From positions 1-58,378 of the forward strand of contig CAYJXB010000001.1 of assembly GCA_964374005.1 (NCBI GenBank): DNA of 58,378 bases, in the 5' to 3' direction. This document shows, one piece after another, positions 8,304 through 52,716 of this stretch (its first letter is position 1; each line of letters opens with the position of its first letter). The DNA is from an uncultured Planctomycetia bacterium (GTDB lineage: Bacteria > Omnitrophota > Gorgyraeia > 2-02-FULL-51-18). The position numbers and the translations under genes were made by a program. Below the pieces are notes generated by a model. It was not told the origin of the DNA. It saw nothing but the letters and a program-made list of their open reading frames with translations, and searched no databases.

Positions 8304-9110
8304 TTATACCTTTACCTTTTTTCCTAACGCCTTTGCGAACGGGCGGATAAACTCTTTGGAAAATTTCGTCGCGCTGATCCCTGGGTGAGCCATGAGGGCG
8401 CGAACAACCACGCTTCCGATGATCACTCCGTCGGCCATTTGAGAAAGGGTCTTTGCCTGCGCCGGAGTGGAAACGCCGAAGCCCACGCAGACCGGAAGTC
8501 TCGTCTGACGGCGAATGGCCTTAAGATTACGGCGAACGTCCGACGCGAGGGTTTTCCTCGCCCCGGTGACGCCGGTCAACGAGACATAATAAACAAACCC
8601 ACGCGTGGCGCGGGTCACCTTCTTTTGTCTGGCGCGATCGCTTGTCGGGGCCAAAAGATAGATTAAATTGATTTTGTGGCATTCGAGGACAGGACTGATT
8701 TCCAGCCCCTCTTCCGGAGGCAGATCAGAAACGATCACGCCGTCCACTCCGGCGCGCGCTGCGTCTTTCGCAAAACGCTGAATCCCATAATGAAAAATCG
8801 GATTGAAATAGCTCATCAAAAGAATGGGGGCCTGGCTCTTTTTCCTTACGCGCGCCACTAATTTTATGATTTTCGCAAGGGTCGTTCCGTTTTTGAGCGC
8901 TCGTTGGGAAGATGCCTGAATGACGGGCCCGTCGGCAATCGGGTCGGAGAACGGGACACCCAATTCAACCAGATCCACGCCGTTTTTCTCAAAGGCAAGG
9001 ATCAGCGCCTCAGTTTTTTTAAGGCCGGGGTCACCCGCCGTAATAAAAACGACGAGTGCTTTTTTCTTTTCTCTTTTCAGAAACTCAAATTTTTTTTGAA
9101 TCCGGTTCAC
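8304..9110 (-). CDS. trpA: tryptophan synthase alpha chain
   Basis: FITAGDP, ELGVPFSDPIADGP. I place the start at GTG 9110..9108 (VNRIQKKFEFLK...), 7 nt after AGGAGG. The ORF-track extension to 9140 (MVGWKKGGGG) lies inside repeat F1-a. Confidence 0.93.
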   Translation of the reverse strand: MNRIQKKFEFLKREKKKALVVFITAGDPGLKKTEALILAFEKNGVDLVELGVPFSDPIADGPVIQASSQRALKNGTTLAKIIKLVARVRKKSQAPILLMSYFNPIFHYGIQRFAKDAARAGVDGVIVSDLPPEEGLEISPVLECHKINLIYLLAPTSDRARQKKVTRATRGFVYYVSLTGVTGARKTLASDVRRNLKAIRRQTRLPVCVGFGVSTPAQAKTLSQMADGVIIGSVVVRALMAHPGISATKFSKEFIRPFAKALGKKVKV

Positions 9111-9258
9111 CCCACCACCTCCTTTTTTCCACCCCACCACTTATTTTTTACGATTGCGAAGCAATCGGTTCGCTTCGCGAACAAAATAAGTGGTGGGGTA
9201 GAAAGATTCGCTACAAGCGAATCTAAAGATTCTTCGAATCTAAAAGGAGGTGGTGGGG
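9110..9258. repeat. F1-a: MITE-like palindromic element between trpB stop and trpA start (composite, contains a 67-bp core at 9132..9198)
   Basis: Arms CCCCACCACCTCCTTTT (9110-9126) and AAAAGGAGGTGGTGGGG (9242-9258), 17/17 complementary. TCA at 9107-9109 and 9259-9261. Internal hairpins CGATTGC/GCAATCG, GTTCGC/GCGAAC, AGATTCGC/GCGAATCT, AGATTC/GAATCT. Confidence 0.9.
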
Positions 9259-12186: not shown

Positions 12187-12755
12187 GGCCGGGTCAAGCT
12201 TAAGAAATTACGCAGGATCTCCTTGCCGCATTGCGTGAGAATGGATTCGGGGTGAAATTGCACGCCATAGATCGGCAACGTTTTATGCTGCAACCCCATA
12301 ATCTCCTTTTCTTTTGTCTCGGCCGTGATCGTCAAATCCTTCGGCAATGTTTTTCGCTCCACGAGGAGCGAATGATAACGCGTGGCGACAAAAGGGTTGT
12401 CGATGTTTTTGAACACCCCTTTGCCGTTGTGATAAATTTTAGAAGTTTTTCCGTGCATGAGCCGTTTGGCGCCCACGACCCTTCCTCCGAACACCTCGCC
12501 GATGCACTGATGCCCCAGGCAAACGCCCAAAATGGGTATCTTAGAGCCCAGTTGCTTGATCACCTCTTTCGAAACGCCCGCATCTTTCGGGCTTCCGGGA
12601 CCGGGCGAGATCACGATACGACTGGGTTTCGCTTTTTTTATTTCGCTGATGGTGATCGCGTCATTTCTCACCACTTTTAATTCTTGGCCCATTTCGCCCA
12701 AGTACTGCACGAGATTGTAGGTAAAAGAGTCGTAGTTATCAATCATCAGGATCAC
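12183..12755 (-). CDS. trpG: anthranilate synthase component II (glutamine amidotransferase)
   Basis: [30 protein letters not shown] start 12755..12753 at the edge of F1-b. Confidence 0.95.
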
Positions 12756-12903
12756 CCCACCACCTCCTTTTGAGACGACAACCCCACCACTTGTTTAGCC
12801 GCATAAGCGGCCGATTGCTCCGCAATCGTTGCAAATAAGTGGTGGGGCAAAGTCGTCTCGGCGCTACGCGCCTGAATTGAAAATTCTAAAGGAGGTGGTG
12901 GGG
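12755..12903. repeat. F1-b: palindromic element between trpE stop and trpG start (contains a core-like module at 12782..12847)
   Basis: Arms CCCCACCACCTCCTTT (from 12755) and AAAGGAGGTGGTGGGG (12888-12903). TCA at 12752-12754 and 12904-12906 (the latter is the trpE stop). Confidence 0.9.
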
Positions 12904-14798: not shown

Positions 14799-15553
14799 AA
14801 CCGCACCGCGACCCCTTTCTTTTTTAAATATTGCTTCACCTGTTTGATCGTCAATTCTCTAAAGTGAAAAATGCTGGCCGCCAATACCGCGTCCGCCTTT
14901 CCCTCGGTCAACCCTCGGGCCAAATGTTCAAGGCTCCCCGCGCCCCCTGAGGCGATCACCGGAACCCTCACCGTTTGCGAAACAAGCCGCAATAAGTCAA
15001 TATCGTATCCTTGGCGTGTCCCGTCGCGGTCCATGCTCGTCAGCAAAATCTCGCCGGCGCCGAGTATCTGAACTTTTTTTGCCCAGGCCAACGCATCTAG
15101 CGAGCTTTCTTCGCGCCCGCCATGGGTATAAACTTTCCATTTCTTTTTGGAAATCCGCTTCACATCCATCGCGACGACCGTGCATTGGGAACCGAATCTC
15201 TCGGCGGAGCGGCTCACGAGGCGAGGATTTTTGACCGCCGCCGTGTTGATCGACACCTTATCGGCTCCCGCTTTTAAAAGCTCACGAATGTCCTCTAAAC
15301 TACTGACTCCGCCGCCCACAGTGAGCGGCATAAACACCCGCTCGGCTGTCCGTCGCACCACCTCCAGTAAAATCTTTCTTTTCTCATGAGAGGCCGTGAT
15401 ATCGAGGAACACCAGCTCATCCGCGCCCTGTTTGTCATAATAAATCGCGCATTCAACGGGATCTCCCGCGTCTTTGAGGTCCAGAAATCGGGTGCCTTTG
15501 ACCACGCGGCCGTCCTTCACGTCCAGACAGGGAATTATCCTTTTTGCGAGCAT
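14795..15553 (-). CDS. hisF: imidazole glycerol phosphate synthase cyclase subunit
   Basis: [22 protein letters not shown]. Confidence 0.96.
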
Positions 15554-16266
15554 GTCCTCACCGCCTCCCGAAGCGTAAATTTATTTTCATAAAGCGCCGT
15601 GCCGATGATCACACCCTTAATATTTTCTTGTTTAAGGTCCATGATCCTGGTTAGATCGCCAAGAGAGCGGACGCCGCCGGAGGCGATCACATCCTTAGGG
15701 AACGCTTGGCTGAGATCCCGGATTTCTTTAAGATTGGGACCCTCCAAGGCGCCGTCTTTTGAAATATCCGTATAAATAATCGTTTGGCCGCCCAATGCCT
15801 GGACTGTTTTTGCCAAATCGGTGGCTTTCGTGTGCGTCAGCGTTGTCCAGCCATCCGTCGCGATGAACCCGTCAAGCGCGTCGATGCCTACGATCATCTT
15901 TTCACCCAATTCGGACAACGCCTCTTTGAGAAACCCTTGATCCAGGCACGCCTTCGTGCCTAAAGTCACCCACGCCGCTCCCATCTCGAGAATAGACGCG
16001 GCCGTCTCAATGCTTCGGATGCCGCCGCCGACTTCGAGCGGTGTGCGGACGGATTTCAATATTTTTTCGACCGAGCTGAGGTTCCTCGGCGTCCCGTGAA
16101 GCGCCCCGTCCAAATCCACGACATGGATCCTGGAAGCGCCCTCTTCCTCAAAGCGCTTGGCGATCTTTTCGGGACCGTCAAAGTAGACTTTCTCTTCTTT
16201 AAATTTTCCTTGGACCAGGCGGACTACCTTTCCGTCTTTCAAATCAATCGCGGGGATCGGGATCAC
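15535..16266 (-). CDS. hisA: ProFAR isomerase (HisA)
   Basis: [32 protein letters not shown] start 16266..16264 at the edge of F1-c. Confidence 0.94.
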
Positions 16267-16432
16267 CCCACCACCTCTTTTTTGGCTTCAGCCAAAGACG
16301 CGCATAGCGCGTCGAGGCGACGCTTTAAATCCGTCGTCCAACCTAAATAAAACTTTTTGTCTTCTAGACTGCGCATGAGATACACGTAAGCGCTATTTAC
16401 CGTGAGCGTCGCCTCAGAAAGAGGTGGTGGGG
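16266..16432. repeat. F1-c: palindromic element between hisH stop and hisA start
   Basis: Arms CCCCACCACCTCTTT (from 16266) and AAAGAGGTGGTGGGG (to 16432). TCA at 16263-16265 and 16433-16435. Internal 11-bp inverted repeat GAGGCGACGCT / AGCGTCGCCTC. Confidence 0.88.
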
Positions 16433-17053
16433 TCACCCCACCACCTCTTTTCGGTAATCAATAAAGTTTTTTATCACGCGAAGCCCCAACGTCTGGCTTT
16501 TTTCAGGATGAAACTGGGTGGCAAAAATATTTCCTTTCCAGACCGCGGAACAAAACGAAATCCCGTAGCTCGTGGTCGCCGCGACCCAGGACCGGTCCTC
16601 GGGATCCCCATAAAAAGAATGGACAAAATAAAAATGATCCCCATTTTTAACGCCTTTAAGAACGGGGCAATTTTTTTTAGCGAGTTTCAAAGTATTCCAG
16701 CCCATGTGGGGTATTTTGAATCGCCCTTGAAAGCGGCGCACGCGTCCATGGACGATATCGAAACCCTTGACTCTTTTTCCCTCTTCGCTTTCGCTGAAAA
16801 GCAGCTGAAGCCCCAGGCAAAGCCCCAGATACGGCGTGCCGCTGGTTATTTTTTCTTTAAGTGCTTCCACGAGGTTGAGGCGTTTGAGCTCTCTCATCGC
16901 ATGGGTAAAGGCCCCTACGCCCGGCAGGATGATTTTTTCCGCCTTTTTCACCTCGCTTTTCGCGGACGTGATCTTGACGCGCTCGCCGTGATGTTCAAAG
17001 GCTTTTTGCACGCTGCGCAAATTCCCCATACCGTAGTCTACGATGACAATCAC
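16433..17053 (-). CDS. hisH: imidazole glycerol phosphate synthase glutaminase subunit
   Basis: IVIVDYGMGNLRS, GLCLGLQ, QFHPEKS. The last codons (KEVVG-stop) are made of an F1-type arm. Confidence 0.94.
   Translation of the reverse strand: MIVIVDYGMGNLRSVQKAFEHHGERVKITSAKSEVKKAEKIILPGVGAFTHAMRELKRLNLVEALKEKITSGTPYLGLCLGLQLLFSESEEGKRVKGFDIVHGRVRRFQGRFKIPHMGWNTLKLAKKNCPVLKGVKNGDHFYFVHSFYGDPEDRSWVAATTSYGISFCSAVWKGNIFATQFHPEKSQTLGLRVIKNFIDYRKEVVG
16436..16451. repeat. Solo F1-type arm forming the last codons of hisH
   Basis: CCCCACCACCTCTTTT directly abuts the hisH stop, so 16421-16447 is the palindrome GAGGTGGTGGGG-TCA-CCCCACCACCTC. Confidence 0.8.
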
Positions 17054-52647: not shown

Positions 52648-52716
52648 CCCCACCACCTGTTTTCTACGATTGCTACAAGCAATCGGTCTGCTTCGCGGAC
52701 AAAACAGGTGGTGGGG
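52648..52716. repeat. F1-g: 69-bp core-only F1 element inserted in the 3' end of argD
   Basis: CCCCACCACCTGTTTT ... AAAACAGGTGGTGGGG (16/16) enclosing hairpins CGATTGC-TACA-GCAATCG and GTCTGC/GCGGAC. TCA at 52645-52647 and 52717-52719. Collinear with 9132..9198. Confidence 0.9.

Follow-up and report, generated by a model that had tools for sequence, protein, structure and literature searches.

The junction of the histidine biosynthesis genes hisH and hisA in an uncultured Planctomycetia bacterium (GTDB lineage Omnitrophota; Gorgyraeia; 2-02-FULL-51-18) raises the question of how three complementary arms came to lie around the stop codon of one gene and the start codon of the next. The stretch of DNA analysed, referred to below as the window, comprises 58,378 nucleotides (GenBank assembly GCA_964374005.1, contig CAYJXB010000001.1). 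An earlier note on this DNA had read the arms as a translation-sensing switch, in which a C-rich arm (the C-arm) pairs either with a G-rich arm at the 3' end of hisH (arm 0) or with a second G-rich arm at the ribosome-binding site (RBS) of hisA (the G-arm). Our analysis points to a different answer: two successive invasions of the junction by one small mobile-element family probably explain it better than an evolved switch does.

Layout of the junction and identity of the insert

All genes around the junction are encoded on the minus strand. The hisH gene (17053..16433), for the glutamine amidotransferase subunit, encodes 206 amino acids (aa) and has a Pfam GATase match of 78 bits, whose alignment extends up to residue 197; alignments with HisH orthologues run out at residues 198-203. 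Its 3' end reads AAA GAG GTG GTG GGG TGA, with CCCCACCACCTCTTT directly after it on the gene strand, and its last five codons (KEVVG) and the stop consist of element-derived DNA. The hisA gene (16266..15535; 243 aa; Pfam His_biosynth, 247 bits) starts with GTG ATC CCG, the ancestral ATG having been changed to GTG (orthologues begin ATGATCCC).

In the direction of transcription the junction contains: (i) arm 0 (16436-16450), a solo right terminal inverted repeat AAAGAGGTGGTGGGG, which codes for K-E-V-V-G of HisH and serves as the Shine-Dalgarno (SD) sequence for the GUG at 16436-16434; (ii) the left TGA (16433..16435), which is both the hisH stop and the left 3-bp target duplication; (iii) the C-arm (16418-16432), the left terminal inverted repeat CCCCACCACCTCTTT, which resembles an anti-SD sequence and codes for TPPPL of a relic open reading frame (ORF); (iv) the G-arm (16266-16280), the right terminal inverted repeat AAAGAGGTGGTGGGG, which holds the hisA SD (GAGG) with the 7-nt spacer before the GTG, and whose last G opens that start codon; and (v) the right TGA (16263..16265), the stop of the relic ORF and the right target duplication, which overlaps the hisA GTG (16266-16264).

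The sequence AAAGAGGTGGTGGGG is found with 0 mismatches at 16436-16450(-), 16418-16432(+) and 16266-16280(-), and the three arms are as the earlier note described them, all being exact copies or complements of it. With up to 2 mismatches it has 21 matches in the window, against 0.10 expected from shuffled sequences. Arm 0, the TGA and the C-arm together form a palindrome centred on the hisH stop codon, with the TGA as its loop. It had been described as near-perfect and placed at 16421-16447; it is in fact perfect and slightly longer, spanning 33 nt (16418-16450), and a repeat search returned it as two 16-nt arms (16418-16433 and 16435-16450), 100% complementary and separated by 1 nt. The same search detected a direct repeat of 23 nt (16259-16281 and 16429-16451, spacing 170), and arm 0 is identical to the right arm of the element over 19 nt (AAAAGAGGTGGTGGGGTGA). 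The G-arm is located downstream of the C-arm at a distance of 137 nt (counted from 22-nt arms) to 152 nt; its assignment as the hisA RBS, about 150 nt downstream, agrees with the SD and GTG start that it contains. The 3' tail of 16S rRNA was not found in the metagenome-assembled genome (MAG), and the label "anti-SD mimic" rests on the general bacterial CCUCC tail.

Judged by its sequence, the 170-bp spacer derives from an element of ~320 bp and has lost an internal part. Between the hisH TGA and the right TGA the window copy measures 167 nt (CCCCACC to GGTGGGG), and its terminal inverted repeats are exact over 15 nt, or 91% complementary over 22 nt with the flanks counted. The relic ORF (16263..16436, minus strand, 57 codons) is linked to both neighbours by a GTGA overlap: its GUG overlaps the hisH UGA and its UGA overlaps the hisA GUG. 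It matches Pfam PF01541 with 27.1 bits (cut-off 22.6) at profile positions 2-36 of 78, and represents the N-terminal half of a GIY-YIG nuclease joined in frame to the C-terminus of the family. A complete GIY-YIG catalytic core is therefore not present in the window copy, which is without profile positions 37-78.

The origin of this truncated gene is visible in an intact copy on contig C14 of the same genome. A 129-nt segment of the insert (16307..16435), composed of the TGA, the left arm and the 5' part of the nuclease gene, is 100% identical to C14:25355-25227 (blastn 129/129), the identity running from the left TGA to ...CTCGACGCGC. Relative to C14, the window copy has an in-frame internal deletion of 153 nt (51 codons), whose junction is the hairpin GACGCGC-TAT-GCGCGTC (16297..16313); in full-length copies the deleted part is bracketed by a 13-nt inverted repeat (GACGCGCATAACA/TGTTATGCGCGTC). 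An independent contig (L154) crosses the deletion junction. In the right 44 nt of the insert only a 14-nt hairpin (TTGGCTGAAGCCAA, 16282..16295) differs from C14, where its counterpart is AAGCCGCGTGGCTT, and both sequences are able to form stems. The two hairpins differ completely in sequence, which suggests either that the structure is conserved while the sequence is free to vary, or that the window copy is chimeric. These right 44 nt appear not to be C14-derived, and a chimeric right end might go back to gene conversion, or to unequal recombination involving an older copy already in place.

In its anatomy the insert corresponds to a miniature inverted-repeat transposable element (MITE): it is a 170-bp unit with a truncated ORF, terminal inverted repeats, a target-site duplication and dispersed copies. 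The duplication is evident as a TGA on both sides, with a single TGA at two related junctions described below, the empty site of contig L042 and the solo-arm site of contig L155. A parent encoding a recognised transposase was not found, as the parent ORF consists of a 108-aa GIY-YIG domain only; no DDE, HUH, serine or tyrosine recombinase was detected in the parent element. Exact look-up of the 57-aa relic product in public assemblies gave no match. No Rfam family was found in the element (only sub-threshold miRNA matches), no promoter in the element or spacer, and no terminator overlapping the element. The earlier note had missed two points: the spacer is a truncated nuclease gene that is still an open frame, and the SD and GUG start of this frame come from arm 0.

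Three states of the junction and scars at other loci

The proposal that the HisH tail is encoded by the surviving arm of a second, mostly deleted element copy could be examined by the comparison of HisH C-termini that the earlier note had suggested. The KEVVG C-terminus was found in none of 29 family- or class-level orthologues, so that no element-free relative ending in this way appeared among them; in most, HisH ends one to few residues past an NF(I/V) motif and its gene has an ATGA overlap onto hisA. Two closer relatives add the intermediate steps. Metagenome contig L042 (HisH 89% identical, DNA ~84-85%) shows the empty state: its junction reads ...ATTGACGCCCGA-TGA-TCCCGATCCC, HisH ends IDAR* and its stop overlaps the ATG start of hisA. 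The solo-arm state is seen in L155, a Logan contig of another sample (HisH 94% identical, DNA ~93%), as ...GATTACCGA-AGAGAGGTGGTGGGG-TGA-TCCCGATCCCC, in which HisH ends YRREVVG*, the GTG of hisA overlaps its stop and nothing lies between the genes. The junction in the window is ...GATTACCGA-AAAGAGGTGGTGGGG-TGA-[167-nt element]-TGA-TCCCGATCCCC.

Arm 0, absent from L042 and alone in L155, starts right after the ancestral last HisH codon. The orthologues, the empty site and the solo arm thus agree with the proposed second copy, and the orthologue C-termini and the L042 site rule out arm 0 as native hisH sequence. The arm is common to two lineages ~7% apart in DNA, and in the L155 lineage it is itself the hisA RBS and start. 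Because arm 0 is present in both lineages and the insert is identical to its paralogue at 129/129 positions, the insert must be much younger than the arm, barring gene conversion. With the same confidence as given above to the two invasions, of which it is a part, arm 0 is probably the older scar of an earlier element copy and a former hisA RBS, at which the present element arrived later.

Scars of this kind also occur elsewhere. In the window's genome, the CdaA protein ends in ...KKEVVG* (C10:3296), its gene overlapping the following one by GTGA with no element present; this tail was found in none of 13 CdaA orthologues, and the cdaA-cdaR junction of genome G004 (L129), a different genus with the same arm sequence, carries a complete element. 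A glycosyltransferase ends in ...GGKKEVVG* (C2:50558); its scar preserves ~29 nt belonging to another arm subtype and is followed by a 72-nt element, which makes this locus (C2:50541) a second three-arm case; the orthologue in G004 (L148) has an ...LKEVVG* tail on a solo right arm. Complete tandems sharing one TGA are present on contigs C22 and C6. The exact head-to-head junction GTGGTGGGGTGACCCCACCAC was found at 4 loci of the window's genome and in none of 31 other family genomes, a count by which recurrence elsewhere cannot be assessed.

Several further loci were recorded alongside these scars. A mirror-image scar is present at C6:1497, where the gene of a 421-aa AAA-type ATPase begins with ATGACCCCACCACCTCTTT (MTPPPLF...), a solo left arm with no right arm nearby. 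In genome G021, another genus, an ~80-nt hairpin element with arms CCCCACCCCCTCTTTC and GAAAGAGGGGGCGGG is located at the same hisA ATGA (L024); its TGA is not a stop codon, hisH ending 6 nt upstream at a TAG. The hisH-hisA junctions of genomes G023 (L030) and G011 (L020) contain unrelated inserts, one a 203-nt spacer with CATGCCT-type heptamers and the other an 84-nt palindromic spacer.

The parent element and its family

The genome (1.59 Mb, 129 contigs) contains 9 complete small GIY-YIG genes, and two of them, on contigs C14 and C27, share the exact ends of the hisH-hisA element. Both intact copies (C14:25355-25030(-) and C27:12906-12584(-); ~320 bp) consist of ATGA-CCCCACCACCTCTTT, an ORF of 107-108 codons and AAAGAGGTGGTGGGG-TGA. 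The ATG within the host's ATGA opens the ORF (MTPPPL...KEVVG*), whose KEVVG-TGA in the right arm overlaps the GTG of the next gene; the right arm supplies an SD, a GTG start and a TGA. The encoded nuclease (107-108 aa) is a single-domain protein matching PF01541 with 61 bits (cut-off 22.6), and the nearest solved structures are the single-domain UPF0213 proteins 1zg2 and 1ywl. No NCBIfam family scored above its cut-off, the only match being a group I intron endonuclease model with 19.4 versus 56 bits. Homologues of the nuclease are encoded in many metagenomes, the EVVG C-terminus being present in 29 of the 33 retrieved and the MTPPP start in nearly all. Given this conservation, both arms are also conserved protein termini.

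The arm core GTGGTGGGG occurs 230 times in the genome, against ~12 occurrences expected. In a census of arms with a strict pattern, 69-72 copies have a TGA at either end. Immediately ahead of the left TGA stands A (45 copies) or G (20) in 65 of 69 cases, which defines the target as RTGA. Elements longer than 75 nt (n=50) range from 83 to 323 nt; the TGA-to-TGA spacing is 2 mod 3 in 45 of them, and in 43, including the window copy with its spacing of 170, no stop interrupts the frame that leads from the RTG at the left TGA as far as the right TGA.

A number of related sequences show other arrangements. In a copy at C8:20474-20799 the ATGA frame is broken and an internal ATG of its own is present. 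Three small GIY-YIG genes (C66:807-1010, C84:491-694 and C67:5284-5487) have no such arms and directly adjoin tRNA genes, on one side or on both; they seem to form a separate subfamily that uses another kind of target. A 72-nt class (window 52648-52716 and ~14 copies genome-wide, e.g., C2:50555, C6:8260, C11:25909 and C34:6319) has a spacing of 0 mod 3, and in most copies the frame from the RTG is open throughout and continues into the downstream gene. For this class a 24-residue N-terminal extension, rather than a relay ORF, is a possible reading. The nuclease homologues P0046, P0019 and P0009 contain extra arm-like units in frame near the C-terminus (e.g., ...KQEVVDDPTTSSQEVVG), by which triplets of G-arm, C-arm and G-arm exist also inside the nuclease gene, in other metagenomes. 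At 9110-9258 and 12755-12903 of the window an inner arm pair (AAATAAGTGGTGGGG type) is nested in an outer pair, which marks those elements as composite.

History of the junction, RNA folding and known systems

The following history would account for these observations. An autonomous element would insert at an RTGA stop/start overlap and duplicate the TGA; the host's former start would open the nuclease ORF (MTPPP...), which would end in ...KEVVG-TGA within the right arm, and the same arm would give the displaced gene a new SD and GTG. At hisH-hisA, the comparison of relatives places at the beginning an ancestral junction ...CGA-TGA-TCC with an ATGA overlap. The common ancestor with the ~93%-DNA relative then appears to have had only the 15-nt right arm, fused to hisH (...R-[K/R]EVVG*) and acting as hisA RBS and start. 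The first copy would have shrunk by deletions that spared the right arm, probably because hisA depends on its SD and GTG. Viable deletions would also have had to terminate the upstream ORF, and an in-frame fusion to KEVVG-TGA would restore the -4 overlap. Finally, in the window's genome a second copy, with its left 129 nt identical to C14 and its 153-nt in-frame deletion, sits at the GTGA of this arm.

In the present arrangement, ribosomes ending hisH may restart at the overlapping GUG by means of the SD of arm 0, read the 57-codon frame through the whole hairpin, stop at the UGA overlapping the hisA GUG and restart there. Such a relay of two identical -4 GUGA overlaps, from hisH through the relic ORF to hisA, is more likely than a switch. 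The contribution of arm 0 would be the replacement of the host ATG by a GUG with a strong SD, and its pairing with the C-arm, in competition with that of C-arm and G-arm, would be a by-product, which may act as a kinetic anti-sequestrator of the hisA RBS.

Folding of the 236-nt transcript region (z-score -7.45 versus shuffles) showed what the alternative pairings amount to. In the minimum free energy fold (-100.9 kcal/mol) the C-arm pairs with the G-arm (mean pair probability 0.98), and the hisA SD and start are buried; the fold with arm 0 and the C-arm forced to pair has -95.8 kcal/mol, that hairpin alone accounting for -27.6 kcal/mol. In prefix folds the hairpin of arm 0 and the C-arm forms first and is optimal until ~205 nt have been transcribed, and the barrier to the alternative fold is 18.3 kcal/mol (direct-path estimate). 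At equilibrium the probability of the hisA SD being unpaired is 0.00 in free RNA and rises to 0.1-0.5 with a ribosome footprint on the hisH stop, in both cases with or without arm 0. By this equality, coupling by unfolding belongs to the ordinary two-arm element. The in silico folds thus comprise two exclusive states, and kinetic trapping in one of them is plausible. The claim that the C-arm has two mutually exclusive partners is borne out as geometry only, the two folds being of similar energy.

The reading of the earlier note, that ribosomes at the end of hisH toggle the C-arm between arm 0 and the hisA RBS arm, and that the layout has been kept for hisA regulation, draws on the feasibility and close energies of both pairings, on the early hairpin and its high barrier, which make a kinetic trap plausible, and on the second three-arm case at C2:50541. 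We nevertheless consider it quite unlikely. The layout results directly from insertion at a scar; neither the 94% nor the 89% relative has it, nor do the 29 other orthologous junctions; and an element 100% identical to its paralogue over 129 nt has left no time for selection. Moreover, SD accessibility in the equilibrium model is the same whether or not arm 0 is present; a ribosome positioned on the stop codon masks most of the C-arm as well, which would make the "freed" state very short-lived; and no Rfam family is present at the locus. A purpose-built switch is thus not supported: the arrangement is a non-conserved by-product of a copy landing on a scar, and a switch-like action is possible only as a kinetic side effect, which is not favoured.

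Equally improbable, in our estimation, is an origin of arm 0 in the same event as the present insert, by copying of a tandem donor that began within the right arm of its upstream copy, or by fold-back or template switching on the C-arm, with the solo-arm state of the relative arising later by recombination between the 19-nt direct repeats. Arm 0 and the right arm are indeed identical over those 19 nt, direct repeats of such length can mediate deletion, and tandem donors are present at C22 and C6. This course of events, however, needs an insert older than the ~7% DNA divergence, yet the insert is identical to C14 at all 129 positions; solo arms without a neighbouring element exist (C10, and L148 in G004); and the C2 scar, being of a different arm subtype than its neighbour, is no copy of it. 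A mis-assembled join at the palindrome or repeat can be almost dismissed. The MAG contig does cross a 129-nt exact repeat and a 33-nt perfect palindrome, and Logan contigs stop at both. Still, assemblies of two other runs reproduce its two sides: ERR4904390 covers hisH, arm 0 and the TGA, its contig ending in ...GATTACCGAAAAGAGGTGGTGGGGTGA, and ERR4904391 extends from within the element over the deletion junction and the right arm as far as hisA. On the flanks the gene order matches that of the his operon in all relatives, and the arm 0 state was also found in another sample.

Some points weigh against the two-invasion history itself. The order of scar and element rests on parsimony and the 129/129 identity; the L155 lineage could instead have lost the element by recombination between the 19-nt direct repeats, and an insert homogenised by gene conversion could look recent without being so. 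The 14-nt hairpin mismatch to C14 makes the window copy look chimeric, which this history does not account for, and the single-domain GIY-YIG nuclease is a putative agent of mobility. The link from the TGA to the C-arm, where the contig enters the 129-nt repeat, is provided by the MAG contig alone. The counts of relay frames are inflated by the common descent of the copies, which are not independent, and the relay and any RNA effect are deduced from sequence and folding alone.

Bacterial MITEs found in operons (Correia/NEMIS, ERIC and RUP) are short, non-autonomous elements with terminal inverted repeats, small target-site duplications and many copies, which form long hairpins in mRNA. They are closest to the present element in anatomy (inverted ends, small target duplication, many copies), but its parent is no known transposase-bearing insertion sequence (IS), its target is RTGA, and its ends act as stop, SD and start. 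The closest in logic are MIRUs, small mobile repeats at operon start codons with a short ORF coupled at -4 nt spacing, a coupling thought to minimise harm to expression (PMC12548453). They share the relay ORF with 4-nt overlaps at both ends; however, MIRUs are tandem direct repeats without terminal inverted repeats and with no known cognate protein gene, whereas here a hairpin with 15-nt inverted ends has a 3-bp TGA duplication, a GIY-YIG-encoding parent and its own SD and GTG. A tandem direct-repeat (variable-number tandem repeat, VNTR) organisation of the MIRU type was not found at the junction, which holds a single hairpin unit and a 15-nt scar.

In protein, the closest relatives are the Ssn nucleases, single-domain GIY-YIG proteins of ~100 aa whose genes are bracketed by NTS/SRM hairpin repeats; these repeats are scattered in many genome copies, and an IS-like "repeat-gene-repeat" architecture has been pointed out (Chenal et al., 2025; PMC11893778). 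The likeness extends to the type of protein and to flanking repeats dispersed in the genome. Ssn repeats, however, are local hairpins, rarely inside genes, whereas here the repeat halves are the element ends and overlap coding sequence and start/stop codons. The SRM motif HGTCWY...RNCYNB is not enriched (5 genome matches versus 4-16 in shuffles, none in or next to the elements), and the element was not filed as Ssn/SRM. The joined right arm, TGA and left arm, a perfect 15-bp hairpin with a TGA loop, might be a natural single-stranded DNA substrate of an Ssn-like nuclease. If so, solo-arm scars would be preferred landing pads or excision joints and would hand an arriving nuclease gene a ready strong SD and GUG, and in mRNA the same hairpin would kinetically keep the C-arm off the hisA RBS; we regard this set of ideas, taken together, as unlikely though somewhat less so than the switch.

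Free-standing phage GIY-YIG homing endonuclease genes of the seg/mob type are likewise selfish GIY-YIG genes between conserved genes, but their products carry a DNA-binding domain apart from the nuclease, and the genes come with neither terminal inverted repeats nor target duplications nor MITE derivatives. In coupling by RNA unfolding or translation attenuation (phage f1 VII/IX, MS2 coat-lysis and rpmI-rplT; erm-type leaders), a helix-locked RBS is opened by an upstream ribosome, and the in silico rise in hisA SD accessibility with a ribosome on the hisH stop resembles this. Here, however, the helix comes from a mobile element and not from the operon, and the third arm is unneeded, with no detectable role at equilibrium. 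No description of GIY-YIG-derived hairpin elements targeting stop/start overlaps was found in the literature, and the family appears to be undescribed as far as the literature is searchable.

The junction provides a dated series of three states, empty, scarred and re-invaded, and illustrates how closely packed operons can tolerate such elements, whose ends restore a stop, an SD and a start. The right arm of a decayed copy probably cannot be lost, and stays as coding sequence (the KEVVG tails of HisH, CdaA and the glycosyltransferase) and as the RBS of the next gene. In the annotation of Omnitrophota operons, GTG starts and unusual conserved C-terminal tags can turn out to be scars of elements. 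The locus is also a natural construct for distinguishing relay (termination-reinitiation) from coupling by RNA unfolding. Its main value, a moderate one, lies in tracing the past of an unusual family of elements and not in a new regulatory device.

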